Virus record (IMG/VR): IMGVR_UViG_3300024272_000034
Strand: one strand, 5' to 3'
Origin: a virus
Length of the DNA: 64,000 nt
Shown here: piece by piece, positions 2,801 to 61,643 of the stretch
How the letters are laid out: every line of letters begins with the position of its first letter
Position numbering within the stretch: the first letter of the stretch is position 1
Notes under the pieces: generated by a model
The model's input: the letters and a program-made list of their open reading frames with translations, nothing else
Told to the model about the DNA's origin: nothing
The model's database searches: none
Position numbers and translations under genes: made by a program

Positions 2801-2840
2801 TTATTTTGAACGAAAAGAGTGAAAGGAGTAATTATATATT

Positions 2841-11800: not shown

Positions 11801-12761
11801 AGCTCTTGGAGATGAATTATAGAAAGTTAGAGAGTTAATTACAGAATATGCTTTACAAAGTAATGGATTAGATATTTTAGCTGAAAAATATGAATCTTTA
11901 AGAGGTCAAATTGATAGTTTAATTTCATCAATTAATAGTATTCCTGATTGCGCTGAATGGTGTGTAAAAACATATGGAGATGGCGGAATGGGAGGAGGAG
12001 ATACTGGAGGTAATTTCCCAGTTGATCCTGACCCAGTTTTTTCATCTGATGATGATGATAGTAAATTTGGTTGTGGTGATCATACTGCTACAACAGCAGA
12101 TGATATTAAAGATACATCAATAACATCAAATACTAATAAAAATTATGCTGTAGAATCTGCTAAATATTGGAAAGGTCAACAAAGTATTGGAGAAGCTGCT
12201 GCTAATTTAGGAATTTCTGTTAGTGAAATGAATAAAATAAATATGGCTTTAGCGGGTTAGACTGAAAATTGGAATGGTACTAAAATTTTCACTGAAGAAT
12301 TTGCTGATTAGAATTTATCTGATGATTATGAAAGAACTCAAAAAAGTGGATTTGATGAAATTATTAATAATCAACAATCTGCTGCTAATGTAAATAAATG
12401 GCTTATAGATGAAGGTATAGCAACTGGTGCCACAGGCATGTATACTGGGGCTTGGGGTCCAGAAGGTAGATTAGCGTTATTGCATGAAAAAGAATTAGTA
12501 TTAAATAAAGAAGATACTAAAAATTTCTTACATGCAACCGATATTTTAAGAAGTATATCTGATGTAATAGATTTACAAGCTATGTCAAATCAATTTAATA
12601 CTTTATCTGCTAGTATCTATTCTGGTTCTTCTGGAATATTAGAACAATCAGTTCATATAGAAGCTAATTTCCCGAATGTATCTGATAGGAATGAAATTGA
12701 AGAAGCGTTTAATAATCTTATTAATACAGCTTCTCAATATGCGAATCGTAAAACTATATAA
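2841..12761 (+). CDS. tape measure protein, 3306 codons, with dozens of in-frame TAG codons read as sense
   Basis: All nine >=60-aa ORF fragments between 2841 and 12761 share one frame. The first ~2.4 kb was translated by hand and the only stops are TAG, about 29 in 795 codons. The protein is E/K/Q-rich coiled coil with the hydrophobic segment MIAVVGAVSKFAGAATTAAKSGAALSGILSKGLAAIGGPTTLIIAGITAAIMGLVGFLG. A LysM-like stretch lies near the C-terminus. It ends at TAA 12759-12761. Confidence 0.8.
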
Positions 12762-12766
12762 ATTAT

Positions 12767-12797
12767 AGGGGTCTGATAATTCAGACCCCTTATTTTT
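12767..12797 (+). terminator. rho-independent terminator after the tape measure gene
   Basis: GGGGTCTGA-ATAAT-TCAGACCCC hairpin followed by TTATTTTTATT. Confidence 0.7.
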
Positions 12798-12816
12798 ATT
12801 GGACTAGATTTATTAG

Positions 12817-12845
12817 TTGACTTTAGCAAAAAATTAAGTTATAAT
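12817..12845 (+). promoter_or_regulatory. sigma-A type promoter TTGACT-N17-TATAAT
   Basis: Near-consensus hexamers with a 17-nt spacer, 28 nt upstream of the ATG at 12873. The RBS AAGGAGA is at 12858. Confidence 0.55.
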
Positions 12846-12872
12846 AGAATATGGAGAGAAAGGAGATTGGTT

Positions 12873-15800
12873 ATGTCAAATAAAAATCTTGGAGAACAAT
12901 TGTGTGAAGCTGTTGATATAATTGCTAAAGCAAGAGTTGGCAGTGTAGCATATGACCAAACTATTATATGTACAATAACTAATGATACTTTAAAAGATAA
13001 AGGTCAATATAAAGTATCAAATGGTTCAGCTGAATTTGATGCTTATACTTCTAATACAGAATATCGTTCAGGAGACAATGTATATGTATCTATTCCAAGA
13101 AATGATTGGAATGAACAAAAATTTATTATAGGTAAATATACTAATAAAGATACTGGTGAATATTTTGTATATCAAAATCCTTTTAATACATTAGTTGATA
13201 TTACTGGCAATGTAATTAATGCTAATGTTCCTACTAATGAAAGTGGATTAGTAGCTAATAATCCTAATGAAGAATATATTATTTTATGGTCTTATAATAT
13301 AAATAATGAGGCTTTACGAAAAGAAAATGGTAATATTTTTAGTGGATATACTAGATTAGGATTACAAGCATCTTTTTAGTCACTTATAAATCCTTTTAGT
13401 TATAAAGAATATGAAAAAAATGATGATGGCAGTTTAAAACGCGATGAAGATGGATTATTAATAGTAAAGAATTAGGCTAATTCAAAAATTATTGATGGTG
13501 AATATGGTTTGCGGCTTCGTTTAAAAGTAACTCAAAACTAGACACTTAGTGAAGTTAAAAATGATGGTGCCGCAAATAAAGAGGTAATTTTTTATCTAAA
13601 TACCGCAGATATGAATGGTAATCCATATAATTTTAATAATTTTTTCTAGCAAGAAAAAGTTTTTGATGTTTCTGAATATGAATCAATTCATTCAATTTAG
13701 ATTGAATTTTATCAAATTAAAGATTCTTTCATTGATGCTTCTGGATATAAATTACCTTATTTGGATGAATGGGGAAATATAACTGCTCCAAATTTATATG
13801 TTAAAGATGTATATTTATGTCTTGGATATGATACTAGCGAGTTTGATGATGAAATGATTAAAGTATATACTTTAGATACTTTAACATATTCAAGAAAAAC
13901 AGAGCCCTTTATGGATAATGCTAAACGAATTGATTTGCGTTGGATACATAAAATGCCAGATGGTTCATTTAAATCAATTACTAAAGCAGATGCCGCAAAT
14001 TATAATTTTAAAATTTAGTGGTATAGATATCAATTAGGTTCTCCATCATCTGACCAATATTCAGATAAAGAGTGGATTTGGTTATCTGACCAAGAAACAG
14101 AAAATGGAAAAAATTATTATACAATTTAGGATGAAGATTGGTTAAATAATAATTAGCAATATAAAGGTAGTGAAAAATATCCCGGTTTCTTTAACACTTG
14201 GTTAATTCCAGATGTAGCTTTAAGTACGGAAATGGTTAAAGCAATTATATTTTTTAATGGAAAACCAATTAGAAGTAATATTGTTATTTTAACAAATGAA
14301 AATGAAGTTGTAAGTCGTCCAACAGTAGATGCTTTAGAAGCACTTACAATTCATTGTAATAATGGATTAGATGAAGCTGGGAATCCAATTTATTCTGAAA
14401 ATTATTTAATTTATAATGAAGGTAATGAATTAATTGATGAATCTTAGGCAAAACAACCACGGCAATTTGAATTAAAATTTGACCCAGAAGTTCCAACAGA
14501 AGATGATGAAACTGAAGGTTTAAAATATGCTAGATATGTGGAATGGCGCATTCCAAAAAAGAATACGATGATTGTAATGCCGCCAGATTATAAAGATAAT
14601 AATGCTTTAGAAGATATTACAGACCCAAATTATTATATTATTAGACGTAATGGTGTTTTAAACGCAGATAATAAATATGTTGTTTATAACAAACAATCTT
14701 TTAGAATAGATAATTATTATTCTGCTGAAAAATCAAATAATACTGTTTAGTGTACTATTGAAAAAGAACCAAATACTTTTTATATAGCAACTGTTGATTT
14801 ATTGTTTGGAGTTGCTGGTACTACTGGAACAGATACAACTTTAGTAATTAATTTTGATGATAGTAGTCTTGGAGCAATTGATTCTGCTATATCTGGTAAT
14901 ACAATTATTACTGCTAAATTATATGATAGTGAAAATAAAGATATTACACAAACAGTTATTAATCAAGATTGTGTTTTTGAATGGAAATGGAAAGGTAAAG
15001 AAGAATATCCTCATGAAAAAATACAAATACTTTCTCCGGAAGATTATTCAAATGAATTAAAAGAACAAGTACAAAAAAATCAATGCGTTATTAGTAATAC
15101 AAATAATCTACCTTTAGAACTTAATGAATGGAATATTCTTTAGTGTACTGTTACAGGATGGCAAGATTATCCTTTAGTAGCTTATTTTGCTATTCCATTA
15201 AAAAGAGACCCTGATAATGCAGAAAAGCGCACTTTATTTATGGAGGGCGCCACAAGAATTATCTATGATTCTGCTGGTACGCCTTCTTATTATAAAAATC
15301 CATATAAATTATTTTATTCTGAAGATATGACAGGAGAAAATCAAGAAGGTGAAATAGAAACTATTAATCAAATTAATCAATATTTAGAAGATTAGGATAT
15401 GATTAAAGATGATTATAGTATACGTTGGTAGCTTTCTTATCATCCAGATTTTTAGACTCTAAATTACTTACCTTCTATTGGAATTTCTAAAAATTATAAT
15501 GATGGTTTTAATTATAATATTGGATTAAAAGCTATTAATGTATATGTTAAAGGTTGCGAAGATTATATTACAATTAATTGTATAGATAAAAATGGAACTA
15601 TATTATGGTCTTAGCCTTTATTAATTTTACAAAATAAATATCCATCATCTATGCTAAATAAATGGGATGGTTCATTATCTATTGATGAAACGGAAAATGC
15701 TATTTTAGCAGCTAAAATTGCCGCAGGTAGTAAAGATTCTGAAAATAGATTTAGTGGTGTTATTATTGGTGATTGGGGCAATAAAAAAGAATATAAAGAA

Positions 15801-18230
15801 ACTACTAATGCTTCTGTAGCGGAAATTGGAGTTTATGGTTTTCATGAAGGAGCTATGAGTTTTGGTTTCAAAGAAAGTGGAAAAGCTTTTATAGGTAAAG
15901 ATACTCGCGGACGTATTCATTTTGATGGAAATGATGGTTCAATTTATTCTTCTGCTTGGATTGCTAATTCAGAAGATAATCATAGAGGATTGTATTTGGA
16001 TATTGATGATGGTAATATTCAAATGCGATAGGAGTATGGTTCTGCAAATATAACCACCTTTATACAAGTACCTGTAAATACTATTAATTTTAAATCTAAT
16101 ATATATTATGCTTTTCAAGAATATATATTAAGTAAAGAAGGATATAGTGCCAGTAAAACTTATTATGAACCATATGGATATAAATTAGTTGATATTGAAG
16201 CCGGTGGATATGAACCTGGTATATATTATAAAAGAATAGAATCTTCATCTACTACTGGTTCTGGTGATAATGCTGAAAATATTAAAATAACAGAATATGT
16301 TTTAGATAATGAATCTTTTAATCCAACTAAAAATTATTATTATGTATCTGCTTTTAAAGAAAGTTCAGTGAGTGCTTCTTCTTATTAGATTAATAAATAT
16401 TATATTAAACAAGAGCCAAATAAAGATGAAGCAACAGGTCAAATTTTAATAAATTCATTGATTCCAAAAGAACAGACAACTTATTATAAACCTTTTTTAA
16501 CTTATTATGAATAGACAGAAATTTCTCCTAATAAATATATTGATTTAGCAACTAGTTCTAATGAAACTGATTATAGAAACGTTTATCCTCTATCTATTGG
16601 ATATGAAAAAAATGTTTATGAGCGTGCATTTAGAGTAAGTTGGGATGGAACTATTTATGTAGAAAATGGTGAATTTAATGGTGAAATTCATGCTACTTCT
16701 GGAACTTTAGGAGATTTGGAAGTAACAGGAACGCTTATAGGTGGAACAATTGTTGGTGGTGATATTTCTGGTGCTTGGATTAGTGGTAGTACTATTGAAG
16801 GTAGTAGAGTATACGCTGATGATTTAATCTGTTATAATGGTAATATTGCTGGTTGGCGCATTACTGAAAATTATTTAAGAAATAGTAATGGAACAATTGT
16901 TTTATATTCAGATGGTGAGCGTGGAGAATTGGCAAAATTTGGTGGATGGAAAGTTACTAAGCTTGGTTTTGAAAATCGTCTTGGAACTTATAAAGATGCG
17001 AATAATATTCGCACCACAAATAATTTTAGTTATTTAAAAGGCGGATTGATTAGTGGTAGTATTTTAGATACGCCATCTGGAGGTATGCTTTTAGCTGGTA
17101 AATTTAAATTAGCTTAGAGTTTAAGCCCTGGTTTTGATACTAATACTGGTATTGGAAATTATTTGCTTATTCCTGGCACTATTGGTGTTGTAATGTCTGA
17201 TATTGAAACTAGTCCAGATGCACCAGAATATTATGGTATAGGATTAGAATATGGTGAACCTGTTAAATCTTAGATAAAAGCTACAGCTGTTAATGTTGGT
17301 ATGCGTTATGGAGTTAATCAATCTATATGGATTACTGATAAAACAATCGGTTTAGCATCTAATGATGGTGATTTGTCATTACATTCAAAAGATACTATTC
17401 ATGAATATTCAGCTACAAATGTTAATATTGGTGTAAAAACTGGTTCAGGTAATAATGTTGAGTTATATCCTTAGTTTGAATCTTATTATAATGGTGGATA
17501 GCAAACAGTAACATTAGGAATTTATGCCAATGATGCTATTACTATTGGTCCAGTAGAAAATGTAGGGGCTTCTTCTTGTAATTTAATTAGAATAGGAGAA
17601 CAGTCTTTAACTATGGATATTGGAGCATGGACTACTAATTTAAATATTGGATAGAATGCATAGAATATTAAAATAGGAGAATTTGCTAAAACTATCATAG
17701 AAATTGGTAGTTCGGTTCCAGAGATAAAACTTGGAAGTACTTCCACACCAAAAATAACTATTGGTAATACGGGAGCCGCTGTTACAATATAGAATAATTT
17801 GTTGACACCAAATTTATATATTACAAATGGTTTTGAAGCTATTGATGGTAATTATGCTGGAACTATAGTTATGAATCCTTCAGGTTTTTAGTTATAGGGC
17901 GGTTCCTTTACTTTAGGAAAAGATGGAGCTTCTGTTAGTGGAAATATTTATTATAATGGTTCTATTAATCTTGAAAATGGATTTAATGTTACTAGTGGTT
18001 CAATAAATATTGGCGGCGGAGAAAATGAAGCAATATTTGGTTCTATATATTATTCTGGTAGTGTTAATTTAGGTAATGGTTTATAGATAACTACTGGTGA
18101 TTTAAATATTAAAGGTGGTAGTGCTACTTTTGATAATAATTTAGAAGTAAAAGGAACTGTAACTATTGGAAGCGGATTGACGGTTGCGGAAGGAGCTACT
18201 GTTACTGGAGTTTATGCTACTTTATTATGA
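12873..18230 (+). CDS. giant tail-tip/baseplate structural protein (1785 aa; distal-tail/Tal-like position after the tape measure gene)
   Basis: Seven track ORF fragments are in one frame joined only by TAG, ending at TGA 18228-18230. The C-terminal third has Gly-rich beta-helix-like repeats (IGGTIVGGDISGAWISGSTIEG, GSINIGGGENEAIFGSIYYSGSVNLGNG). Confidence 0.65.
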
Positions 18231-27964: not shown

Positions 27965-28026
27965 TAAATAAATTGGACAAATGATATTAGTTTCTTTGAA
28001 AGAAAATTGAAATTTAAAGAAGAAAA

Positions 28027-28060
28027 GGGATGAAGAATTAATTTCTTCATCCCTTATTTT
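28027..28060 (+). terminator. rho-independent terminator
   Basis: GGGATGAAGAA-TTAA-TTTCTTCATCCC hairpin followed by TTATTTT. Confidence 0.65.
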
Positions 28061-28085
28061 AATTTGTGCGAAAGGAGAAATTAAT

Positions 28086-31000
28086 ATGGGAAACAATGCT
28101 GTTTTTCGTGTTGCTCGTGGATTAGATGAAAAAATAAATCAATTACCGTATGATGATGGTAAAGTTTATTTTGCTATTGATACTAAAAAAATTTATTTAG
28201 ATGCGAATGAACAAAGAACACCAATGGGTGGAAATACTGGTATTTATTATGGTAAAGCCGATTTTACTGGTGAAATTGGACCAACTTTTATCTTTAAATT
28301 TGAAGATATTGATGGTGATAATTTACCTAATATTAATGATTTAATTTTAAATAGCGATGGTAGTTTCTATAAAGTTATATAGATTTTAAATGAAGATGGT
28401 GAAATCTTTACCGAAAAATTAACAATTGCTGGTTCTGGTGGAGGAGGAGCTAATCCAGATGAACCTAGAGGAGAAATTAGTGTTGATATAAAATTTGATT
28501 CTACTGTAATTGTTGGTGAAAAAATTTTATTAAAAATTAAATTATTAGCAACAGATGCAGAGGGCCAAAATACTGGTGATGGCCGATATGAAATTAAATT
28601 ATAGAATATATTAAAAAAGAGCGGTACTTTAATTAATTCTGCAGGAGAAGATGAAGCTATTGAAAATTTAATTGATATTACTGATTTGTGTGTATTACCT
28701 GGAGATTATACTTTTAGAGTGAATTGCTATGCAGATACTGGTAATCTTGAACCTGAAGTAGTACCAAGAAACATTAAAATTAAAGTAGTTAATTTTACTA
28801 CTACTTGGAATTATACAGATACTACTATTAATAGTGTTTATTCTGATTTTACTATGACTTGGAGTACTAATGTTCAAGATGATAGTTATAGAGCTTATAT
28901 TGTAATTGATGATATTTATCCTTTTGATATTAAAGGAACTTCACTACATATTGCAAAAGAAAATTTAGCTGATTATGGTTTAAAACATGGCGCTCATAAA
29001 ATTGAATTACAATCTTTCGCTAAATTTGGTAATAGTTTAACTGAAAAATCAAGTAATAAGATTATAAAAAATGTAATCTTTTATGATAATGATCCAAATA
29101 TAACAAATTATATTATTGCTTGTGATTTCTTTGAAACTAATGTATAGCAATATAATACAATTCAATTACCAGTAATGATTTATCATGCAAGTAATATAAA
29201 TGGTACAGCAACAATTACATTTAAAACAAATAATAAAGTAACTGAATTAACAAATTGTAAAAATTTAACTAAATATATTTTTACTTATACTCCAGATAAA
29301 GCAGGATTTATTCCATTACAATTTTTAAGTGGTGGAACGACATTAGATTTAAATTTAAATGTAGAAGCTTTAGATATTAATGTTCAAGAAGTTTCTGGTT
29401 ATGAATTTAAATTTAAAGCAACAGATTTTGCTAATGATGAAGAAGTTAAACAATGGACTTGTAAGAATAAGCAAATTGAATTTTCTGAAAATTTTGACTG
29501 GATTAATGGCGGTTTAAAAAATGGAGATAATGATATCGGACCTTATTTTAGAATACAAGCTGGACATTGGATGAAAATTCCTTATAAACTTTTTGAAGAA
29601 GATTTAAAAAATACTGGTGCTTGTTTTAAAATGGTTTTTAAAGCTTATAATTGTAGAGATTATGATGCTACATTTATTAATTGTTTATCAAATGATAAAG
29701 GATTGGAAATGAAAGCATAGGGTGCTAATATCATATTAAATTCTAAAAAATCATTAAATACTCGTTATTGTGAAGATACATATATTGAATATGAATTTGA
29801 TATATGCAAATTTAATGAATCTAATAGAAGTGACCAATATTATACAATTTGGTTAGATGGTATACCTGCCAATGTTGATAATATGGGTATTACAGATTCA
29901 TTTTTACAAGCTAATGCGCAAGATTTAATTATTGGTTCAGAAGATTGTGATGTATTTATTTATTTAATTAAATTTTATAAAAAACATTTAACATTTAATG
30001 AACATTTATAGAATTTTATTATTGATGTACCAAATGCTAATGAAATTTTATCAAGATATGTACGTAATGATATAATTCTTAAAGATTCTTATGGTAATGA
30101 ATATATATCTCCTGAATTATTAGCTGAAAAAAATCCAGAATGTAATGTCTATTTGCTTGAAGTGCCATACATTCCAACTTCCAAAGATGATGTAAGTATT
30201 CCTAATCCAGATGATCCAAATAATCCTAATAAAGAATGTTGTACTTTTTCTCATTTAAAAGGTAGTAAAAATCATTTACGTGATTATAGTGGTGTTAAAG
30301 TACGCGCGCAAGGTACATCTTCAATGGACTATGGCATAGCGGCTTATAATATGGATATTAAATTTCCAGAAAAATGGAGTATGGATGAAGAAGCAATTCC
30401 AGTAAATTATATGAATATGAAAGTTAATGTTGCTTCTTGTGAAGGAGCAAATAATGCTTTAAATCAAGAATGGTATAATAGATATTAGCCATATAAAACT
30501 CAAAAACGTTTAGCTAATAAAAATGCTCGTGATACAATGGAATTTAAAAATGGCGTTGTATTTATTAAAGATAATAATACAAGTACAAATAGTGCTCCAA
30601 CAAATAATAATGCTTTTGTTGAAATTGAAGGATATGTAAATAAACCTTATCATCGTATGTATTCTATTTGTAATTTAGGTAATTCAAAAAAGAATATAGA
30701 TGTATTCCATGGTCAAGGTAATTAGTATGAGTGCTGTGTTGAAGTAAATGATAATAATACTAGCGGACAACGTATGGTTTCACTTAATGGTTTTTATGAA
30801 GCTAATAAAGACTTAGGTGTTGAAGAACATGAAGTAGAATTAAATTTAAGTGATGATTTATTTGATGAAAACGGTTTTGTTAAACCAGGAGTTGATTGGG
30901 GAAAAACCTATGATGCCCAACTTGAAGGCAATGAAAATTTTACTGAAGAATAGAGATGGATTGATAATAAAATGCTATGGAATAATGCAATAATAAAAGA

Positions 31001-34000
31001 AGGTATTTATGGTTTTAGATATTGCATTGATAAAGATGATTTTATTGCATCTGAAGAATTTCCTACTTATGATGATTATGAATAGGAAATTAGTAATAGA
31101 TTTTTAAGATTAGTTAGATGGTTTGTAAAAAATAATCCTTCTCAAGCTACTAACGCTCCATTAGAAAATCCAATTGAATTTCCAACTTATATAATTAAAG
31201 GTATTAAAGAAACCGCTTATGCTAACTATAATGCTACTGAAATATTAGCTGGTACAGAAGTTAAAGAAGGACTTACATTTACAGTAGATTCTTCTGCCTA
31301 TAGAGTTGCAAAAATGCTTAGAGAGAGTGAAAATTATTTAATTTTAGACTCTATTTTCTATCATTATATTTTTATTGAACGACACAGTATGTTAGATAAT
31401 GTTGCTAAGAACACGTTCTGGAATACTGAAGATGGTATTCATTGGGAATTAACTAAAAACTATGATAATGATACAGCGGATGGAATTAATAATAGTGGAC
31501 ATTTAGCACTTGATTATGGCGTTGAAATTATGGATAATACAACTGATGGAAAAGAAATATTTAATGCTAGACCTTCATCATGGTTACATTTCGCACACGG
31601 ATGTTTATCATTAAGAGAAAAAATGTATTCTGCATTATTTAATACAAAGGATGATACTAATGCTTGGTCTGCTAATAAATACTTAGAATTATTTGAAAGT
31701 TGGCAAAATGCTATTCCAGAAATTTGTTGGATTCAAGATTTTTATAGAAAATATTTTAGACCTAATGATATTTATGGTGATGCATCTTATTTAGCGCGTT
31801 TAGCGAGTGGTAAAAAAACACATCAAAGAAAATAGTATGAACTTTATCAAGAACAATATCTTGATTCTGAATATAAAACATGTGCTAGACGTGGTGAAGC
31901 TATTTCCTGGCGTTCTATGTAGCCAAGTGATCCTGAAATTATGATTGATAATAAATATGTTTTAGGAGCTACTGTAAAAATGTATGCTGATGGATATTTT
32001 GCTATGGCTCTTGCTAATGGAGCTGGTACAGAAGAATCTGTAAATATTCATATAAGAGGTAAAAAAGGTTAGTTAATTAATTTCTCAAAATCTTAGGAAA
32101 CAAATTTTAATGATGCGACTTGTTATATATATGGTCCAAGTTTATATCAAGAATTTATTCATGCTGAATCAATATATCCTAGTTATATTACAGCTACAAA
32201 TGCAACTAAATTAAGAAAATTTAGTCTTGAACCAATGTATAATAGTTAGAAAATTATGCTTAAAACTAGCTTATCTTTTGGAGATAATTTAGAAGAATTA
32301 ATTTTAAAAGATTGTTTAAGTATTCTTGATGAAACTAGTGGAAAACCAACCAGTATTGACTTAAATTTAAAGAATTGTGTACGCTTAAAAAAGATTGATA
32401 CAACTAATAGTACTTTATTTGCAAGTTATGAAATTGCAGATGGTGCTCCATTAGAAGAATTTTATATTCATCAACCAACTGGTTTATATTTATAGAATTT
32501 AAGATATTTAAATAAAAATAAATTCAATATTGAAAATTATGATTCATTAACATCTATTTAGATTAATAATATTGATTATAATGATATTAATAGTATTGAT
32601 ATTTTAAATAATGTTTATAGACATAATAATTCAATTATATATAATTTAGAAAATGTAAAATGGAAGTTTAATAATGAAGATAATATCACCGATACTAATA
32701 TTCCACTATTGGATTATTTGTTAACTCAATCATTAGCAATTGCTGGCAAAACGAAAGCTTTATCTTTAACAGGTTCAGCAATTATACCATATGAAGCATA
32801 TGATGGAATTAACTTATTAAGTTTATATGAAAAATATGGATTAGATTCTGGTGAAAAAGATAATACTTATCCAAATTTAATTTTAAATTTCCTTGATAAT
32901 AATGAAAATTCTAGATTATATACTATCAATATTGAAAATGGTGATGGTTAGATTGTTTGGACAAGATAGGTAGATAATTTTAATACATTAACAAATGAGA
33001 TTTTATCCAATAGTGCTTTGGGAGCTTTTGACGCAACTGCTGCAATTGCTAAATCTTATAGCAATGAATTTGTTTATAATTTTGCCAATTCTTGGGAATA
33101 TATAATTAATAATGAAATTAAACCTATAGAACCATTAGATGAATAGGGAATGTATTAGTATTTAGATATGTCTAAATTATAGAATGTTAATGAATCTAAT
33201 ATTACTATTCGTCCAGTATATATAACAGATACTCGTTATTATACAATTCAAATATATGATGTGTGGGGAGAAAAAATTCATGAAGCAAAAGTTGAATATT
33301 TAGCTTCTTTTGATGAAGTGCGTCCTCCAGTTCTTCCATTAATGAATGATTCTAATTTGGAATTAGAAAAGACATATTATTTAAAAGGATATGGAACTGT
33401 TAGAACTGATAATAGTATCATTAATGAACAAGATTGGAAAGCCACAGCTGATTTAATTTTATATACAAAATTTGAAGAAAAAAATGTATATGATATTGAT
33501 TATTCTTCTTATTTAGATATAGATACAACTGGTACTGTATTAAATGGTTTAAAGAAAAATAAAAATGATGAATATATTTATTAGGGGCAGAAAATTGTAA
33601 TTCCAAAGTCTATTCAAACGATAGCAACTAAGGCTTTTGGTTTTGAACAAAACGATAAAGCACAAAGTAGTAAAACTAATTTAACAAAAGTTTTTTTTGA
33701 AACAAATAGTAATTTAATGTATATTAATAAAGCTGCTTTTGGTTATTCTAACCTTGAATATTTTGAATTTGTTAATTCTATTGAAAGAATTGGTGAACAA
33801 GCTTTTAGAGGATGTAATTTATAGGCTATTAATTATAATGGTATATTAAAATTACCAACTTCTTTAAAACAAATTGGTTAGCATGCTTTTAATAGTTCTT
33901 TCGGTTCAATAACATAGAATGTAGAATTATTCGTGCAGATCCCATCAACTATTATAGAAATAGATAGTTATGGTTTAGCTCACTGGGGACCAATAAAAGC

Positions 34001-34238
34001 TGATATTGCTATTGGTTCTTCCAATAGTTTTTCTAATTTAAGTTTAGAAAAAACTCAAGGTGGAGTACCAATTATAAGTAGTAACTATGGTAATGATAAA
34101 GATATTTGTAATATTTATTTTTATACTAAAAATTATAAAGATAATAGCATTATTAATGGTATTCTTATTGGTGAATTTTTTGATGATAAAAATTTAAGTA
34201 GTAATTATAATATTACTGTTCATTATATTGATTCGTGA
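28086..34238 (+). CDS. giant (2050 aa) host-recognition/tail protein with C-terminal BspA-type leucine-rich repeats
   Basis: RBS AAAGGAGAAA upstream. Ten track ORF fragments are in one frame joined only by TAG, ending at TGA 34236-34238. The C-terminal region (IPKSIQTIATKAFGF...INKAAFGYSNLEYFEF...IGEQAFRGCNL...LKQIGQHAF) matches the BspA-like LRR pattern. Confidence 0.65.
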
Positions 34239-47668: not shown

Positions 47669-48106
47669 TTATATATTACAATCTCGTACTTCTAACTTCA
47701 TCGCACTTTCATAATAATTTTTAGCTTGACCATTGCCGCCCAAAGAAGTATATAATTTATAAAATTCAGTTAATTGGTCATACTAGTCGGGAGTCATAAA
47801 TCCTTGTCTAATAAATCCTTTGCATAATTGAACTAAACGGAAACGATAAGAAGAAATAATTAAATTCATGTGATTCTTTTCTACTTGACCCACATTATAG
47901 ATATAAGACCTTAATTCTTCAAGCTCCTATTGAATTGGTTCAATTTTACTGTCAATTGTTTCATTCAATTTGTCAGTCTCTTGGTCTGCTAAAAGCTTTT
48001 TATAATTTTTCATTTGACTATGCATATATTTACAAAAAGCTAAAGCACCAGCAGAAATTAAACCAAAAATAATTTCAATGAAATGTTCAGTTAAAAAAGC
48101 TAACAT
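47669..48106 (-). CDS. membrane protein with N-terminal TM helix (145 aa, 2 in-frame TAG)
   Basis: The reverse-strand frame is open through two TAG codons. N-terminal hydrophobic FIEIIFGLISAGALAF. It was missing from the ORF track because TAG splits it. Confidence 0.45.
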
Positions 48107-48172
48107 TATAACAAATCCCCTTTCTTAAAATTTTTTCTCACACTATATCAATTTTAAGTAAGGGGATTTTAT

Positions 48173-48664
48173 TTATTCAGACCAATCAAATGATTTTGCC
48201 TAAGAGTTTAGATACCAGTGACCAATACATATTGCGTCACTTTCATCTTCTGTAGCTTGTTTATTATAAAGCGTTTTTATTAATAACTAAGCTTCTTTTT
48301 TCTACTCTGGACGAGTTCTACTTTTTATACCGATTTTACTTTTCCATACTGTAGCTAATACAGCTTCAACTGGTATATCTAATTCTACAATCAATTCATA
48401 AATAACACCAAATACTTCTGCTAATGTTTTAAAGGTTTGAACATTTCCTGTTACATTAGATTGAAGTTGTATATCTTCCATTATAACTTTATTAATAGAA
48501 TAAGTATCAATTAATTGATGAACATTTTTTCTAATATTAAGCAATCTATCTCCTAAATCGGATTGATTACAAGTAAAATGTCCATAATCAATTAATTGAT
48601 TATCTTCAAATATAGCATATCCAGTTATTTTAGAAGACTAATCTAAAGATAAGATTCTGCTCAT
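48173..48664 (-). CDS. ruvC: RuvC-family Holliday junction resolvase (163 aa, 4 in-frame TAG)
   Basis: N-terminus MSRILSLD(TAG)SSKITGYAIFED matches the RuvC/YqgF catalytic motif. C-terminal DESDAICIGHWY matches the acidic motif. ATGA start/stop overlap with dut. Confidence 0.6.
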
Positions 48665-49356
48665 ACTGATTCAAAAACATCTGCTTTTAATCCAAGAGAA
48701 TTAAAAACATCAAGTAATTTTTCATCAATTTTAATTTCGTTATTTAAATTAATTGATTGTAAAGAAGTAGAACCAAATCCGCCTGTTCGTAAGCCAATAG
48801 CTACATCATCTTCAATGGTATAATAAGGTTTAATAATTCCTTGACCAATAATATCTCCTCGTTTTAATTGAATATCAAATGGAGATAAATTAATTAATTG
48901 AAAGAAAATTTCACCTTCATTATCAGGATTATTATAATAATCAGCGTCAATAATACCAACTCCATTAGCAAGAATAAGCCAATATTTTAAAGGAGTAGAA
49001 GACCGCACGCTTAATTCAAGATAAGTATTTGGAAGTAATTCACATTTCATTCCAGTAGAAACTAAAGAAGGTTTAATTTTTGATGCTTTAGTAACAGCGG
49101 CAACATCTTCAAGAGTATAAGGTTTACTCATCTTTTGCGCAAGCTCATATTCAGCCTTCTTCTTTTCTTCTGAGTCAATTACATTCTAATGTAATTGGAA
49201 TAGTTCATATCTACCAAGCCAATTCAATTCTTCAGAACAAGATGGAATTATAATATCTTCAGCTACAACAAAATCATATCCAGCGCTCTGTTCTGTTTTT
49301 CTAATTGGTAAAGGTAAATCAATATCATTAAATCTACTTACTTTTTCAAATTTCAT
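48661..49356 (-). CDS. dut: dUTPase-family protein (231 aa) with an ~80-aa insert carrying one in-frame TAG
   Basis: Track ORF 48661..49131 carries motifs 2-5 (GIIDADYYNN, RTGGFGST). The same frame continues upstream through one TAG to ATG 49354-49356, adding motif 1 (SAGYDF). Confidence 0.6.
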
Positions 49357-49601
49357 TATTCTACCTCATAATTAATATTAACAAAACTTATCGGGTCTTT
49401 TTCATCATTGAAATGTTTGTTTAAAGTAACTTTATACCAACTATCAATAACTGCACCTTTAGATTTTCTTTCTTTAAATTCACTAGAATATTTTGCTAAT
49501 GAAAATTCAGTAGCATTCTTAGCTTCATCAATAATTTCTTTTACTTCATTTTCATTATCTACTCTATATACTTCAATTGTACTTACAAGATATTTTGACA
49601 T
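49356..49601 (-). CDS. hypothetical protein (81 aa)
   Basis: RBS GAGGT upstream. TAATG overlap with dut. Confidence 0.4.
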   Translation of the reverse strand: MSKYLVSTIEVYRVDNENEVKEIIDEAKNATEFSLAKYSSEFKERKSKGAVIDSWYKVTLNKHFNDEKDPISFVNINYEVE

Positions 49602-49602
49602 T

Positions 49603-49863
49603 TTAATTTACCTCAATATTAATTTTTTTAGTATTATAATTTTTTACATTATACATTTGAATATCTTCAATAAAACCTTCAAGATATCCTTCATTACCAT
49701 ATAGGTGAATATTGTATATATCATATGTATAACAACTACTAACAATTACTTCTGCTAAATTATCAATAGTTGTTGAAGCTATTTCTCGCTTACCATTATC
49801 ATCATAAATAAATATATACTAATCAGTATTAAATAAATTAACTGAACTAACAATATAACTCAT
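49603..49863 (-). CDS. hypothetical protein (86 aa, 1 in-frame TAG)
   Basis: Reverse frame is open from ATG 49861-49863 through one TAG to TAA. Confidence 0.35.
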
Positions 49864-49864
49864 T

Positions 49865-50215
49865 TTATCCTCCATATGAAACCATTAAACCTTCACAATC
49901 AAATAAGCACATACATAAATTTTCATCTTCATTTGTCCGCACCCAAATTTCAATTGTATCAGAAGCTTCCATATAATCAACAGTAATAATCTTACCAATA
50001 TCTAAAGCGCAAGTAAGAACTGCTTTTCCTTTATTTTCAAAATCCGATTCGTTTGCTTTTGGATAGAAAATAGTATAATAAGAAATTTCTTTACATAAAA
50101 GCATTAAATTTGAATAATTTTTCATTTTATCATTAATTAATTCAATATAAGGGTCTATATTATCTGCTATTGGAAGCTATGAAACAATAGATTTATTTAA
50201 ATCATATAGATTCAT
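49865..50215 (-). CDS. hypothetical protein (~116 aa with upstream extension through one TAG; start uncertain, alternative start at 50125)
   Basis: Track ORF 49865..50125. The frame stays open upstream through a TAG to ATG 50213-50215. Confidence 0.35.
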
Positions 50216-50299
50216 AGAAATATTTCCATAATCTTTAGATTCTTTTTTTAAATTACACTTCATTATTTATCTCCTTTTTTATTTTATATAATAATTATA

Positions 50300-54333: not shown

Positions 54334-54559
54334 TTATGTCAATAGCCTCATCTTCATATTCATATTTTAATTGATTAGGTAATTCATTACGATAAAAAGT
54401 ATATTTCCTTTTACAGGTAGGACAAAAATAAACATACTGTTCAGGATAAGTACATAAAACTTTACCAGTACTTTTTATTTCTTCATTACAATCTTCACAA
54501 TAAAAGCTATCTATATAGATAGCTTTTACATATCGTCTTTTAATTTTCATCTTCTTCAA
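54320..54559 (-). CDS. small zinc-ribbon protein (79 aa)
   Basis: CEDCNEE...CPTCKRKY. Overlaps its neighbours. Confidence 0.4.
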   Translation of the reverse strand: MKKMKIKRRYVKAIYIDSFYCEDCNEEIKSTGKVLCTYPEQYVYFCPTCKRKYTFYRNELPNQLKYEYEDEAIDINEEV

Positions 54560-57047
54560 TTCCTCCTTGATAACGTTCCGAAGTTAATTTTAAATCAGTT
54601 TTATTTACAATTTCTTCAATTTTATACAACTGATGACCTGGCGTACTATTGTATTTTTTAACAATAAAATTATCTCCAGAACGAATACCCATAACCGCAA
54701 TCATATTACCACGATTAAACCAAGATTTTTCTACAATCTTTTTAGTTCCATCAGGATTTTTGATAGAAATTTGTTTATCAAATAAAGAAAAATATTCTTT
54801 TCTAAATTTAACTTCTACAACTCCATGAGTTGTTAATAACGTTACTGTGCTTTTAACCTTATTTTTTGCTATACAGGTTCCGCAAATTTTATGAAGTTTA
54901 AACATATGAATTTCTTTTCCTCCACGAGCAAACACTTGGTCTACTATTGGTTCTTCTGGCAAAGCAAAGAAATCAACAAATCCATATTTATTATGATTTA
55001 CATCAATTAATTCATGTTCGTGATAATAAAAACATAAAACTTCCATCTCCCAAGCAGAAATTGTACCTGAAGCATATTTCTCCCAATCTTCAAGAAAAAC
55101 AGCATCATTTATTTTTACTAAGATTTCATCTTTATTTTCATTAATCCATGTTCTAAAAATATCCATCCAATTTTGATAAATTTTTTCCCATTGCTTAATA
55201 TTCATAAAGAAAATTGTATCTTTTGTTATAATCAAATTATCACAATGTACTTCAATAAGAAAATTAATAGCTCTTTCATCTAATTTATATAATTCATTAT
55301 TAAATTTACAAATTGCTTTTAAATAACGATTAAATTCATATACTCTTCTTGCTAAAATTTGTTCTTCAGTTTCAGATGGAAGTAGATTATATTTAATTAA
55401 TCCACCCATATTTTGTAGAGTAATTCTTTTTTTTCTATCGCAAGTTTCCCAAATATACCAAGCCATACAAGTTTTACGTTCCATCATATCATCAAAAGCT
55501 CCACCCTTAATCAATGAAATCATAGCTTGCTTGCCTGGATTTACTTTATTCAAAAAATCTCGCGGAGATACATAAGGTCTATGTTCAATGATAGATGCTA
55601 CGACATCATCACCAACATTTAATAATCCTTTTAAACCAAAAAGAATTCTATTGTTCTCAGCATCTGGCGCAAAGCCATATTTAGATTTATTAATATTTGC
55701 TAAACTAACTTTAATACCAGCAGCTTGAATATCACCAATAGCTTTCGCAATTTTACCATAATCAGTACTTGCGCCAGCTTCTTCATCAGTTGCGCCACTA
55801 TTAACAATTAAACAAGCTGTATTCCAATAGATAGGATTAAATTTAGTTGCCAATAAAATTGTTTGAATACCAACAAATGAATAAGGTAATGAATGATTTA
55901 AACTAAAAGCATATCCAAGTTGTGGAGCGACCGCAACTTCCCAGACATAATCTGCTATATTAGAATTTCCAATTTTTTCATACACTTGCGCTTTTAATTC
56001 CGGAATTTTTGACATCTGTTTTTTTGCTACTATTTTACGAGCAGCGTTTGCTTCACCTAAAGTAAAATTAGCAACCTCCATCAAAATTTCCATCATTTGC
56101 TCTTGGATAGGACAGCAACCATAATATTTATCACAATGTTTATGCATTAACTCAATCATTTTTTCAGGCAAATGATTAAATTTCATTTCTTTATCAAAAA
56201 TATTAATTCCTGATTTTTGAATGCGAGCATATCTATCTTGCTGACTTTCTTTACCTTTTTCAGACATAAGTCTCATCATAGCATTTGCGGCAGTCATCTC
56301 TAAAGGATTTTGTGGTTTAAGTTTTTTCGCAATTGCTAATCCAACACCACCACTAAACTGAAATACATCCAATATATCACCTGCGGCTAAATGATTCCAA
56401 ATATAATTTTCAGATGTGTCAATTATTTCTGGATGAATATATTTATTATAAGTTTCTCTTAAACCAATATTTTCAATTAAATTATCCTCATGTAACATTT
56501 CAAAACATTTAATAATTTTATCAGAAACTTCAGTTACAAGAAAATCATATTTAGTATCACCTGCTGCTTCCGCCGCATGTAAGTCAAAACAAGTAATTAA
56601 ATCTCCATTTGGTGCTCTCATAAAAGATGCTGTATCAAATGGATTTTTATCATAAAGAATTACACCAGAAGCATGAATGCCACGTTTATTTACTAATCCC
56701 TCTATTGAAATGATAATATCAACCAATCCAGGATATTGATTAACTTCTTTTATAAAAGTTGTAACTGGTTTTCTATCTTTTTCTTCATCACCATATAATA
56801 CTTCTGAAATAGACCATAAAAATCCACGTTCTTGAGGAATTAATGATGACATATATTGCGCTACATCTACATCTATTCCTTCTGGATATTCTTCACTTCT
56901 ATAACCACGACAAGCTGTAAGAACAGCTGATTTAGTTCCTTCAGTTCCAAAAGTTGCTACCTGAACCAAACCAAATTCTCCACGTTCTTTACGAATTGCT
57001 TCAAAAATCGCTGGTCTTTTACTTGGAGCCAGGTCTATATCAATATC
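54540..57047 (-). CDS. dnaE: DNA polymerase III alpha subunit, exon 2 (836 codons), begins DIDIDLAPSKRPAIFEAIRKERG
   Basis: The track ORF from 56969 extends in frame to 57047 with no stops. The conserved PDIDIDF / GEFGLVQVATFGT motifs are reconstituted across the splice. Confidence 0.8.
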   Translation of the reverse strand, partial: DIDIDLAPSKRPAIFEAIRKERGEFGLVQVATFGTEGTKSAVLTACRGYRSEEYPEGIDVDVAQYMSSLIPQERGFLWSISEVLYGDEEKDRKPVTTFIKEVNQYPGLVDIIISIEGLVNKRGIHASGVILYDKNPFDTASFMRAPNGDLITCFDLHAAEAAGDTKYDFLVTEVSDKIIKCFEMLHEDNLIENIGLRETYNKYIHPEIIDTSENYIWNHLAAGDILDVFQFSGGVGLAIAKKLKPQNPLEMTAANAMMRLMSEKGKESQQDRYARIQKSGINIFDKEMKFNHLPEKMIELMHKHCDKYYGCCPIQEQMMEILMEVANFTLGEANAARKIVAKKQMSKIPELKAQVYEKIGNSNIADYVWEVAVAPQLGYAFSLNHSLPYSFVGIQTILLATKFNPIYWNTACLIVNSGATDEEAGASTDYGKIAKAIGDIQAAGIKVSLANINKSKYGFAPDAENNRILFGLKGLLNVGDDVVASIIEHRPYVSPRDFLNKVNPGKQAMISLIKGGAFDDMMERKTCMAWYIWETCDRKKRITLQNMGGLIKYNLLPSETEEQILARRVYEFNRYLKAICKFNNELYKLDERAINFLIEVHCDNLIITKDTIFFMNIKQWEKIYQNWMDIFRTWINENKDEILVKINDAVFLEDWEKYASGTISAWEMEVLCFYYHEHELIDVNHNKYGFVDFFALPEEPIVDQVFARGGKEIHMFKLHKICGTCIAKNKVKSTVTLLTTHGVVEVKFRKEYFSLFDKQISIKNPDGTKKIVEKSWFNRGNMIAVMGIRSGDNFIVKKYNSTPGHQLYKIEEIVNKTDLKLTSERYQGGIEEDEN

Positions 57048-58229
57048 CGTTTATTGGACTATATTTTTCATAATGACTTACTAAGAGCATTTTACTTCAG
57101 TCATTACTAGAACATCTTTCAGACGGTGCTTATCTCCGCCTTACATAAATAGTCTCTACACATTTAATCTTATTTTTCTATTTGTTTCCAATAATAGCCT
57201 TTATATAAAGTTCCATTTTTAATCGCTTTATCTAATTGAGTGTGTCCTTTCATTCCTAAGAATTGTAAGACTGCGGTTTTAGCATTAAATATTTGAATTA
57301 AATTGTAATTTTCATCATACATTTCAATTCGTTTTCCATTTAATGCTTGATTACCACTTTTACCATACATACCATTTTTTTCGCCAGCGGTTTTACCTTT
57401 ACTATTTACAGACATTTTCTACTTAGACTCTTCTGTATGTTTTTTACCATACATTCCATTATTAGAACCTTTTGTTTTTTCACTCATTTTTTGTTTAAAC
57501 TCTTCAGTTCTATAAGGAGAGTTGTCTCTTTCAAATTCTGCCCAATAAGATAAAAATGCTTTAGTTTTTTCACTATGGTATTTTCCATACATTCCATTAT
57601 TCTTACCACGATTTACTTCACTTAATTTTCGGCACAAAACTTCTTTTTCTTCTGGTGTATATCCTGCGGTAGTGTTTCCTCCACAACCGCCCTCATGAAT
57701 ATTATAAAACAATGGATTTGATGTGGCATTATATAAGGCAATAAATTGTTTTTCTTTTTCACTATTTTCTAAATCATTTTTAGAAACAAATAAAATGGAC
57801 TTTGTAAAACAGTCTTTTCCATATTTGGCAATTTCTTTTTTCAATTCTTTTCCGCTGCCTAAATATGAATCATCTAATTCTCCATAATGTTTTCCGATAT
57901 ATTTCATACCATTTATATTATTAGTAGTTAAATAAATATAATGTTGTTTCATTTAAACAACCCCCTTTCATATATATTTAACTTTTAGAATTAGACAATG
58001 ACCTGACTTTGTCCAAGATTTTTAGCACGGTATTCCCAATCTAACCTTTTTTAGGTCATAGGGTCTCTTAGTCAGTTGATTCGCATTTATATAACATAAA
58101 TCTTATTTCGCTGATACCGTTAGCCTGCGGTTACTCGTCTCGCCGGTCGGATGACCGGGCCGCCGCAGACACCCATTAAGCAATGGTTAATGTTCTTTTT
58201 TTACAACTGCCCAATATCAATATTAGACT
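57048..58229 (-). mobile_element. group I intron in dnaE carrying a GIY-YIG homing endonuclease gene
   Basis: Exon 1 ends ...NKERAELP at 58230 and exon 2 starts at 57047. Joining them restores the conserved DnaE motif. The intron follows a U and ends in G. Its 5' part (58090-58170) is GC-rich and structured. The read-through tail after exon 1 (SLILILGSCKKRTLTIA) is unconserved. Confidence 0.7.
57170..57952 (-). CDS. GIY-YIG homing endonuclease with four NUMOD3 (NGMYGK) repeats (260 aa) containing one in-frame TAG
   Basis: The N-terminus YIYLTTNNINGMKYIGKH is the GIY-YIG motif. Track ORFs 57419..57952 and 57170..57415 are in one frame separated only by a TAG (TEESK-TAG-KMSVNSKGK). The C-terminus has an HTH-like IKNGTLYKGYYW. 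RBS GGGGG upstream. Confidence 0.7.
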
Positions 58230-59600
58230 AGGCAGTTCGGCTCTCTCTTTATTTAAAAATCTCCAATAAGGGAGACCCCAACGAATTGGGTCAAGTTGAG
58301 TAATACCAAGCAAATAATTTGAAAGAAAACCGGTCGCAGAACCTCGTCCAGGTCCAACAATTGAACCGCATTCCCAAAACAAATCAATATAATGTTTAAA
58401 AGTATTGAAATAAGCGAAAAGACAATCATCAAGTTTTTCTCCAATAAACTTAATTACATCTGCCTCAATTTCAATACGATTAATATATTCTTCATTAAAT
58501 AAATTTTTATTTATTAATTCTTGTAGACATTCATTAATCCAATATCTTTCTTGAGATTCATCAGATATTAAAAGTGATTTAATAATCGGCCAATTAGTAT
58601 CTAATTCATCTTTTAATGAATTATTAATACCAAAATAAGATAAAGTTTTAGGATAATCTTTTACTTTTACTTTTGGAATAATTTGTTTTCTTTCAATTGA
58701 ATAAAATTCAATTTTATTTTTTATTTCATTTGTATTATTTAAAATCCATTCTGAAATATCATCATCTTGATAAGCATATGTTAATAATTCTTTAGCTTCA
58801 TTATAATCCATTAAACGAGCAAATTCATAAAATGAATCAACTTCTCGTTCTCCACCTTTAGAATTTAAATAAGCTTTATGAACCCATCTATCTTGACTTG
58901 TATAATAATGAGCATCAGTTCCTGCGACTAATTTAATTCCAAAAGATTGAGAAATAGAGTATAATTTTTTATTAACCAATACTTGGTCTTTTGTAGTTGC
59001 TGGGGCGCATTCTAAATAGAAATCATCACCAAATAATTCAAGACAATAATTAATAAAATCAATTATTTTTGAATAATATACTTTCATTGTTTCCATGTCT
59101 TGAACTTCTTCAGCTAAACAAAATTGTAATAAATTTGATGATAATTCTCCACCAAGACAAGCTGTTGTAGCTATTAAATGTCCTTTATATTTATTAACAA
59201 TAGTTGATAATTCTTTTTTTAAAACTGGAACTCTTTCCATTTTTCTATCAACATATAAATTATACCAAGCTATTGAACTTAATTCTTTTAATGCCATATA
59301 ACCAATTTTATCTTTGGCAATTAAAATAAAGTGATAATATTTTTGACCACTACTTCTATCATCTGTTAAATAAATTTCATTACCAAGTGCAATTGTAAAA
59401 TCTGGATTTGTCTCTCTCAATTTCTTAGCATATTGATTTACTTCCATGTGCGCAGATAAACATTCATGGTCTGTAATTGCTATACCGTTTAAACCCAATT
59501 CAATTGCTTTATCAATTAAATCTTTAGGTCTATTTATACAATCAAGTAAGCGAATATTTGAATACATTGTATGATTATGACAATTAAAATAACTGTTCAT
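58230..59600 (-). CDS. dnaE: DNA polymerase III alpha subunit, exon 1 (PHP domain, 457 codons)
   Basis: N-terminal PHP motifs CHNHTMYS, AITDHEC. Ends ...RFLNKERAELP before the intron. Confidence 0.8.
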
Positions 59601-61053: not shown

Positions 61054-61287
61054 TTAATCCTCTTTATTATTTACATGAGCATGTACTAATTGTTCTAAAC
61101 AATTATAAAAGTGCATTTTTTGAGTTTCTGCTTGATTATGTTCTTGTTCATAATCATGACTACGCTCTGCTTTTAATCTAGCAACTTCGTCACAGAGAAT
61201 AGCATATCTAAAATAAATGCTATCAAAACCAAAATCTAATCTATCTTTATATAAATTTTCTAATGCTTTTTCCTCTATTGTAATCAT
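61054..61287 (-). CDS. small hypothetical protein (77 aa)
   Basis: Clean ORF with a 4-nt overlap to its neighbour. Confidence 0.35.
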   Translation of the reverse strand: MITIEEKALENLYKDRLDFGFDSIYFRYAILCDEVARLKAERSHDYEQEHNQAETQKMHFYNCLEQLVHAHVNNKED

Positions 61288-61643
61288 AAGTTAAACTCCT
61301 TTATAAAATTTTCGTACCATTTATCAATTTGCTCAAAAATTTCTAAATCACTTTTTTCTTTTGGTTTCTCGGTCTCAGCTTCCAACACCGGCCGGAGCAA
61401 TTTTTCCTCCATTAAATAGACAGTATTCATTATATGGTCATATGTAAGCAATTTATTTTCAGTATCATTAATCCTAGCATCTAAATTTCTCACCTAATCT
61501 TCTATTGTGTCTATACGACCGTAACGACCAAGTGCTTTAACTATATCTGTAACTTCATATAATGAAATTCTATATTTATCTTCAAATTGATTTTCAAACC
61601 ATGTGAAATTATCTTCACCAAGCTTTATTTGAGTTTGTATCAT
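61284..61643 (-). CDS. hypothetical protein (119 aa with N-terminal extension through one TAG)
   Basis: Track ORF 61284..61493 starts at a GTG. The frame continues upstream through a TAG to ATG 61641-61643 (MIQTQIKLGEDNF...). Confidence 0.4.

Follow-up and report, generated by a model that had tools for sequence, protein, structure and literature searches.

The interrupted dnaE gene and its insert

In a 64,000-nt stretch of viral DNA (IMG/VR record IMGVR_UViG_3300024272_000034; hereafter the window, whose positions serve as coordinates throughout), the minus strand carries a dnaE gene split into two exons by an insert, which we assign to the group I introns and which holds an open reading frame (ORF) predicted to encode a homing endonuclease (Table 1). 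The insert separates the Pro codon from the Asp codon in ...ELP|DIDID..., where DIDID is the motif that we take to carry the catalytic aspartates of the polymerase, and the last base of exon 1 (...GAA CTG CCT) is T 58230. Removal of the 1182 nt from 58229 to 57048 joins 58230 to 57047 and restores ...RFLNKERAELP|DIDIDLAPSKRP..., giving a predicted spliced DnaE of 1292 amino acids (aa) and a nucleotide sequence across the predicted ligated junction of ...GAACUGCCU|GAUAUUGAUAUAGAC. An initial annotation of the window, made from the sequence alone, had already proposed that removing about 1182 nt at this place would restore the DnaE motif, and its coordinates and description are exact. The Pfam DNA_pol3_alpha profile runs across the junction, with positions 9-100 in exon 1 and positions 103-259 in exon 2, which also holds the finger domain and HHH_6. 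All of the 120 best full-length DnaE homologs (70-78% identity, 97-100% coverage) are without the insertion, have no gap within 10 residues of the junction and read RFLNKERAELPDIDID or DIDVD there. Left unspliced, the exon 1 frame would meet a stop after 17 further codons past the junction, and the exon 2 frame opens only at 57050, with a TAA one codon upstream and its first possible start codon 26 codons inside, past DIDID. Neither exon contains an in-frame TAG, as the initial annotation had stated.

Related loci were collected from look-ups of eight endonuclease homologs together with pattern scans of IMG/VR. A complete insert could be extracted from 27 metagenomic loci, yielding 16 distinct sequences, all at exactly the same dnaE position and all with the final T of exon 1 and the final G of the intron. 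Two of these inserts have no ORF, those of L023 (304 nt) and L021 (310 nt); as neither length is divisible by 3, the insert must be removed as RNA. Exact 20-23-mers from the window intron had no match in IMG/VR; a more degenerate P1 pattern did match. Relatives with two or three dnaE insertions also exist: further insertions in exon 2 (L016 3755-4603 and 5765-5783; L017 3755-4603; L019 2039-2887) consist of an HNH_3/NUMOD4 ORF and, further down the gene, a second GIY-YIG ORF, giving up to three interruptions per gene.

Structure and classification of the intron RNA

The structural alignment comprised 13 distinct sequences with the ORF removed, and the resulting model has 83 pairs (1061 cells); the controls were models in which the 3′ partners were slid by 1-3 columns, plus 500 shuffles. 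Standard pairs occupy 98.6% of the cells, compared with 32-43% in the slid controls, 30 pairs change on both sides, compared with 3-8, and the covariation score is 0.32, compared with at most 0.078; the observed values were reached by none of the 500 shuffles. Furthermore, RNAalifold, which was blind to the manual model, recovers every nested helix.

The predicted fold ties the intron to both of its exons. P1 has eight pairs, which are invariant in the 13 sequences, and a U·G pair at the 5′ splice site in 13/13, its U being U 58230 of exon 1. The P10 helix, formed by a guide within the P1 loop and the start of exon 2, has 11 pairs with 95.8% of cells paired; one pair changes from AU to GC on both sides, and others alternate between GU, GC and AU. 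The changes in the guide track the synonymous choice between GAU and GAC and between AUU and AUC in exon 2, which points to a function in splicing and is hardly explicable otherwise.

Within the intron, P3 is 100% paired with compensatory changes at three pairs, and both of the hairpins between P3 and P4 carry compensatory changes as well. The second of them bears an extension of 73% GC that is missing from the ORF-less relatives; the GC-rich structured ends described in the initial annotation are found in this one 5′ hairpin extension, whereas the 3′ end of the intron is only 33% GC. P5, P5a and P5b, which P4 encloses, covary. The loop of P6 contains a hairpin (P6a, 58014-57993), the Shine-Dalgarno sequence GAAAGGGGG (57969-57961) and the endonuclease ORF, and is reduced to GGAA or UUAACUAA in L021 and L023. 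In P7, G and GACUA, with an A bulged between them, pair with UAGUCC, and the bulged A beside the G-C pair would constitute the guanosine-binding site. Compensatory changes are present at four pairs of the hairpin between P7 and P3′ and at 6/7 pairs of the manual model of P8. The order of the core is P3-[P4-P6]-P7-P3′-P8-P7′, with a P3/P7 pseudoknot. Two other pairings were tried and rejected. One, a first model, assigned CUGCGG/CCGCAG to P4 and the first GACUA (58072-58068) to P7, but that "P4" is an empty 5-bp hairpin in the ORF-less relatives; the other, GCUA/UAGC as P3, would cross the well-supported AGAACAUU/GAUGUUCU helix, does not hold in L026 and has 3′ bases that are part of P8.

Table 1. 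Features of the interrupted dnaE locus, its predicted intron RNA and the long late ORFs, in window coordinates
Feature	Position	Strand	Description
dnaE exon 1	58230..59600	−	457 codons; PHP domain and first part of the Pol III alpha domain
dnaE exon 2	54540..57047	−	835 codons plus stop; starts GAT ATT GAT ATA GAC, DIDID motif
Group I intron (predicted)	57048..58229	−	1182 nt; first base A 58229, last base G 57048
P1	58205..58237	−	exon strand AACUGCCU (58237-58230) with internal guide GGGCAGUU (58212-58205)
P10 guide	58223-58213	−	AUAUUGAUAUU, within the P1 loop
P10 target	57037..57047	−	GAUAUUGAUAU, first 11 nt of exon 2; partner of 58223-58213
P3 5′ strand	58189..58196	−	AGAACAUU; pairs with 57116-57109
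P3 3′ strand	57109..57116	−	GAUGUUCU
Two hairpins between P3 and P4	58123..58186	−	CCAUU/AAUGG 58186-58173; UCUGC.../...GCAGG 58170-58123
P4	58027..58120	−	ACGGUAU 58120-58114 with AUACCGU 58033-58027; encloses the large P5 domain
P5 domain	inside P4	−	P5 CAGC/ACUG; P5a hairpin 58101-58085; P5b hairpin 58063-58035
P6	57166..58020	−	AAUC 58020-58017 with GAUU 57169-57166
Homing endonuclease ORF (predicted)	57170..57952	−	260 codons plus TAA; N-terminal GIY-YIG, NUMOD3 repeats, C-terminal DNA-binding domain
In-frame TAG	57419..57421	−	codon 178 of the endonuclease gene
R element	57149..57164	−	AAUGUGUAGAGACUAU; P7 5′ strand: G (57156), bulged A, GACUA (57154-57150)
Hairpin between P7 and P3′	57121..57141	−	AGGCGG/CCGUCU, loop AGAUAAGCA
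P8 hairpin	57070..57107	−	9 bp in the RNAalifold consensus
S element	57048..57068	−	AAAAAUAUAGUCC; J8/7 and P7 3′ strand UAGUCC (57061-57056), 7-nt tail, terminal G 57048
Late ORF	2832-12761	+	3310 codons, 78 TAG
Late ORF	12780-18230	+	1817 codons, 28 TAG
Late ORF	28011-34238	+	2076 codons, 25 TAG

Based on this structure and its covariation, on the ORF-less relatives and on core motifs held in common with introns that Rfam recognises, we assign the insert to the group I introns, in agreement with the initial annotation, and a P3-P7 core is present. The intron appears to be a mobile one of subgroup-IA-like type, and self-splicing is predicted from the structure. The core motifs were traced through the window 15-mer AAUGUGUAGAGACUA, which recurs in many IMG/VR contigs and at three sites falls in sequence that Rfam scores as Intron_gpI at 59-70 bits. 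In the Rfam alignment of one of these contigs, L073, the 15-mer corresponds to the end of P6, J6/7 and the P7 5′ strand, with AAUACCGAGC at J5/4-P4′-P6 and AAGAUAUAGUCC at J8/7-P7′; the window carries AAUACCGUGC (P4′/P6), the 15-mer and AAAUAUAGUCC (J8/7-P7′) in the order seen in L073. AAUACCGxGC and AUAUAGUCC, representing Q/R/S core sequences, are likewise common to the window intron and the Rfam-positive introns.

Several observations weigh against this assignment. P4, P6 and P7 never vary and are always paired, and covariation is uninformative for them; the two hairpins between P3 and P4 depart from the textbook group I layout; and there is no P9 helix, the window having just 7 nt from P7′ to the terminal G (the distance from the conserved UAGUCC to exon 2 in relatives is 8-25 nt). 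The Intron_gpI covariance model of Rfam (RF00028), which the initial annotation had proposed as a check, was negative: it has no match in the window at the gathering threshold or at E ≤ 10, none in six ORF-containing relatives at the gathering threshold, and none in the ORF-less L021 and L023 even at E ≤ 10. We infer that RF00028 misses these introns because P9 is absent, because of the two P3-P4 hairpins and the hairpin after P7, and because the P5 domain is long. A dedicated covariance model would recover many introns missed by RF00028.

The 15-mer scan also turned up other structured RNAs. At least eight IMG/VR contigs carry the 15-mer AATGTGTAGAGACTA (L057, L058, L068, L073, L089, L104, L117 and L141), in surroundings that resemble compact group I introns followed by a tRNA T-arm; these are apparently introns in tRNA genes, and only some of them pass the Rfam threshold. 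A ROOL RNA lies in L068 (6054-6628, minus strand, 299 bits) and a transfer-messenger RNA (tmRNA) in L063 (1656-2061, plus strand, 90 bits). Among the relatives with the dnaE insert, the L021 contig has a second group I intron, Rfam-positive at 66 bits, at 8797-9091 on the minus strand, some 8 kb away from its ORF-less dnaE intron.

The endonuclease gene and its in-frame TAG

The intron is predicted to encode an I-TevI-like GIY-YIG/NUMOD3 homing endonuclease. NUMOD3 (PF07460) scores 62.3 bits against a cutoff of 20.4, a PHROGs homing endonuclease family matches at 3e-34, and the GIY-YIG catalytic fold was confirmed by a separate test; some homologs carry PF01541 or PF19835 annotations in the source database. 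The residues YIY(5-7), YIG(18-20), E67 and N84 are present, all except YIY in invariant columns, and can be aligned by eye with I-TevI Y6, Y17, E75 and N90, with no assignable equivalent of R27. An AlphaFold model, built with 27 homologs, is confident at residues 1-78 and 205-260, and the C-terminal domain of the predicted enzyme matches I-HmuI and a small DNA-binding protein. The initial description of the ORF as GIY-YIG with four NUMOD3 copies holds for both domains and overstates the repeats, of which two stretches pass individually; inspection by eye gives three NGMYGK repeats and three helices of the xTEExKxKMS type. Two results speak less favourably for this identification: Pfam GIY-YIG (PF01541) itself remains under its curated cutoff (21.6 versus 22.6 bits; E = 2.8e-4), and sequence searches of the PDB with the endonuclease and with the family profile returned nothing significant, the best hit being the I-TevI DNA-binding domain at E = 0.29.

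The ORF has a strong Shine-Dalgarno sequence. No sigma-70-like promoter was detected upstream of it inside the intron by a scan to which phage-specific promoters are invisible, and in leader folding the burial of the Shine-Dalgarno sequence is not significant (z = −1.2). A 7-bp hairpin, GUUGUUU/AAACAAC (57940-57965, minus strand), places the endonuclease AUG in its loop just past the Shine-Dalgarno sequence. Conservation of this hairpin among relatives is partial, and it could weaken the initiation of translation.

The endonuclease frame contains one TAG, at codon 178 of 260, as had been noted initially, and its reading depends on how the phage uses this codon. Treating TAG as sense increases the combined length of all ORFs of 150 codons or more from 8900 to 20287 codons and turns the plus-strand late block (1-43000), which is readable only in this way, into a succession of long genes. 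TAG accounts for 41% of TAG+CAA+CAG in five large late ORFs. The minus-strand replication block (50.3-64 kb) is free of TAG except for the endonuclease ORF and an ambiguous site at 61494, where two small ORFs (61284-61643, minus strand) are either split by the TAG or form one 119-codon ORF reading through it. TAG use rises along the minus strand, the genes at 47.7-50.3 kb (window 47669-50263) having 1-4 TAGs each; among them are a RuvC-like gene (48173-48664, minus strand) with four and a dUTPase-like gene (48661-49356, minus strand) with one.

Because the phage uses TAG as a sense codon, the endonuclease TAG is likely sense as well, and the most economical reading is that it is most likely decoded as Gln, as TAG probably is in the late genes. 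Codon 178 is CAA (Gln) in 8/9 DNA-verified relatives and GAA in the ninth. Of 117 database homologs, 74 have Q at this position, 20 have R and 13 have K, although some of these Q may be translated TAGs. Related endonuclease genes have 1, 3 or 8 in-frame TAGs and no in-frame TAA or TGA: L016, L017 and L020 have a TAG at codon 125, L025 has one at the corresponding position and three in all, and L030 has eight. Of the ten alignment columns of the family that hold a TAG, five have Gln (CAA) as the most frequent residue in relatives, and the others have K, E, H or A. On the branch leading to the window, synonymous and non-synonymous substitutions number 17 and 4 upstream of the TAG and 7 and 3 downstream of it, so that, small as these numbers are, the downstream part still looks constrained.

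On the other side, a single TAG is by itself indistinguishable from a fresh nonsense mutation, and no tRNA, hence no suppressor, is present in the 64-kb window, which is an incomplete genome, or in 24 related loci that were scanned. The window likewise holds no tmRNA and no Rfam family at the gathering threshold (1-64000). The means of decoding TAG must consequently lie elsewhere in the genome. The initial proposal that full-length enzyme would require a suppressor is borne out insofar as the TAG has to be decoded and is sense in the late genes; a suppressor tRNA was found neither in the window nor in the 24 loci.

Mobility, timing and comparison with known introns

The endonuclease family is large, with 797 homologs at E ≤ 1e-5 in a HMMER search, which suggests that this intron family is common in gut-phage metagenomes. 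Between the window and L003, the endonuclease region is 91.5% identical at the nucleotide level and the flanking exons 70-75%; identity so far above that of the exons indicates an element moving between diverged genomes. The endonuclease allele of the window is found unchanged in three independent assemblies.

Together, these features make it highly probable, in our judgement, that a mobile IA-like group I intron splits dnaE and carries an I-TevI-like endonuclease whose TAG most probably specifies Gln. In the proposed mechanism, the internal guide would pair with the last 8 nt of exon 1 (P1) and the first 11 nt of exon 2 (P10), and the P3-P8/P4-P6 core, with the guanosine-binding site in P7, would carry out two transesterifications, the ligated mRNA encoding the uninterrupted 1292-aa DnaE. 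The endonuclease presumably cuts the intron-less dnaE of co-infecting relatives, and repair would copy the intron in. Once TAG is decoded, codon 178 would be read through to give the 260-aa enzyme; before that, translation would yield a 177-aa product lacking the C-terminal DNA-binding domain. Delayed appearance of the full-length enzyme would be a likely consequence, which is not to say that the evidence shows selection of the TAG for delay.

Other explanations for the arrangement were considered. Split-intein "fractured" dnaE genes with free-standing endonucleases are described from phage-rich metagenomes (Dassa et al., 2009; PMC2677866), and gene callers and GenBank annotators do treat the dnaE halves as separate genes; the locus could on this account comprise two separately translated halves (a split intein or two subunits) beside a free-standing endonuclease, or else an intein. 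With a stop 17 codons into the insert and one open codon before exon 2, there is no space for intein halves, and a separately translated second half would start beyond DIDID. Pfam finds only DnaE domains in both halves and no intein domain, inserts of 304 and 310 nt without an ORF occupy the same site, and the noncoding parts behave as a conserved, covarying RNA with a guide paired to both exon edges. These sequence features (stops on both sides of the junction, no intein domain, inserts without an ORF and an RNA that covaries) exclude the intein and split-intein readings, and we regard a fractured dnaE in any form as scarcely credible. The intron might instead splice and be immobile, the endonuclease gene being a decaying pseudogene in which the TAG is true nonsense and whose product is no more than a 177-aa fragment. 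The family does include introns that have lost this gene (L021 and L023), one stop codon is the expected first lesion, the search for a suppressor tRNA in the window and 24 related loci was negative, and 22 contigs are on record with a truncated 177-aa form (P0225). Against decay, this genome plainly uses TAG as a sense codon, and the TAG of the endonuclease occupies the position of Gln in relatives; the 82 downstream codons contain no second lesion and on the window branch changed mostly synonymously (7 to 3), the relatives with 3 or 8 TAGs carry no TAA or TGA, and the same allele recurs in three independent assemblies. Decay of the gene is, on balance, quite improbable.

A further question is whether the TAG of a functional endonuclease is a selected timing switch, which would keep the endonuclease untranslatable during early dnaE expression and confine homing to the late phase. 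The same idea was proposed for TGA-recoded Agate phages, in which in-frame stops should block endonuclease production until late infection, TGA being read as Trp and the gene family being recoded preferentially by statistical test (Borges et al., bioRxiv 10.1101/2021.08.26.457843). As in that case, an endonuclease encoded by a group I intron lies in an early gene of a recoded gut phage, with recoded stops in the endonuclease and not in the host gene; unlike it, the codon in the window is TAG (probably Gln), single and missing from several relatives. In favour of a switch, the endonuclease gene is the only certain carrier of an in-frame TAG in the 14 kb of the minus-strand replication block closest to its promoter (61494 may be a stop), and it is probably expressed on the dnaE transcript, given that no sigma-70-like promoter was seen upstream of it within the intron, albeit by a scan that cannot detect phage-specific promoters. 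When lineages are pooled, TAG accounts for 13/95 Gln-type codons in the endonuclease and 10/372 in dnaE (p = 9e-5, in a test that treats related sequences as independent), and the contrast is also seen within L025 (3/6 versus 1/38) and L030 (8/12 versus 7/34; p = 0.006 each). In the window, however, the contrast is 1/9 versus 0/37 and not significant (p = 0.20), and six of the ten related lineages compared have an endonuclease without TAG; in L149 and L150, the two TAG-less cases with flanks examined, nearby genes do carry TAGs. The positions of the TAGs vary by lineage, as drift under relaxed constraint would also give, and relaxed constraint on a gene not needed early accounts for the data as well as selection for delay does. 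A timing role for the TAG is plausible but unproven; a selected switch seems unlikely to us, and so, to the same degree, does the combined proposition that the TAG is kept by selection as a clock for late homing while the intron belongs to a widespread P9-less, IA-like subclass unseen by Rfam. The earlier suggestion that homing is tied to the late phase stands as a plausible consequence of the recoding and goes beyond the evidence as an inference, the window contrast being non-significant and the TAG not conserved. What the locus does provide is a TAG counterpart of the published TGA case that does not prove the hypothesis, together with a caution, that endonuclease genes tend to be richer in TAG than their host gene, yet the codon is gained and lost from lineage to lineage.

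With a mobile, IA-like group I intron as the preferred interpretation, known introns offer several comparisons. The td intron of phage T4 is a subgroup IA2 group I intron encoding the GIY-YIG endonuclease I-TevI. Both introns interrupt a phage gene of nucleotide or DNA metabolism and loop the endonuclease ORF out of P6; the P4′/P6 sequence of the window, ...CCGUGCUAAA..., appears to resemble that of td. Unlike td, the window intron has no P9, P9.1 or P9.2, has a single hairpin between P7 and P3′, two between P3 and P4 and a much larger P5 domain, and lies in dnaE; its ORF carries a recoded TAG and has no sequence-level match to I-TevI in the PDB. Bacillus phage SPO1 has an intron with the endonuclease I-HmuI in its DNA polymerase gene, the polymerase there being of the Pol I type and the endonuclease of the HNH family. 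The window intron is likewise a mobile group I intron in the replicative polymerase gene of a phage. The arrangement also recalls fractured genes in having dnaE as two ORFs with an endonuclease gene between them, and differs in lacking intein halves and in a spacer that is a structured RNA pairing with both exon ends (Dassa et al., 2009; PMC2677866).

Similar introns are found in isolated phages of Staphylococcus, whose hosts are cultured. A blastn search against isolated phages returned only short similarities to dnaE and the endonuclease. A tblastn search with the junction region found Staphylococcus phages with dnaE split at the same point. In PT1-1 (PP212900, L152), the first half ends ...RFLNKERPELP and the second begins DIDID, with an HNH endonuclease gene between them, in contrast to the GIY-YIG gene of the window; in an SPbeta-like phage (KT429160, L151), the halves are annotated dnaE_1 and dnaE_2. 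By eye, these introns share with the window the P3 strand, the two hairpins, the GCUAACGG P4, the R element GUGUAACGACUAU, the hairpin with the GAGAUAAGCA loop, and AUAUAGUC. They differ from it in having a P7.1 hairpin and two hairpins after P7′ (P9 and P9.1): between P7 and P3′ the window has one covarying hairpin (57141-57121) and the Staphylococcus phage homologs have two, the window hairpin corresponding by loop sequence and position to the second. A literature search found no paper describing the Staphylococcus phage dnaE introns, and no description of P3.1/P3.2-type hairpins or of phage dnaE group I introns. As an intron, the element in the window is ordinary in kind, and its points of interest, which are modest, are an architecture that escapes Rfam and the recoded TAG.

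For annotation, dnaE genes that gene callers and, for isolated Staphylococcus phages, GenBank list as two genes would really be one intron-split gene; the records L151 and L152 give the halves as dnaE_1 and dnaE_2 or as hypothetical proteins. Other endonuclease genes occur near the relatives of this intron. L150 has LAGLIDADG ORFs next to dnaB and inside nrdD and a free-standing GIY-YIG gene (these ORFs lie at 615-1445, 3153-3974 and 15256-16128), and the free-standing GIY-YIG gene contains five in-frame TAGs, the dnaE-intron endonuclease of the same contig none.

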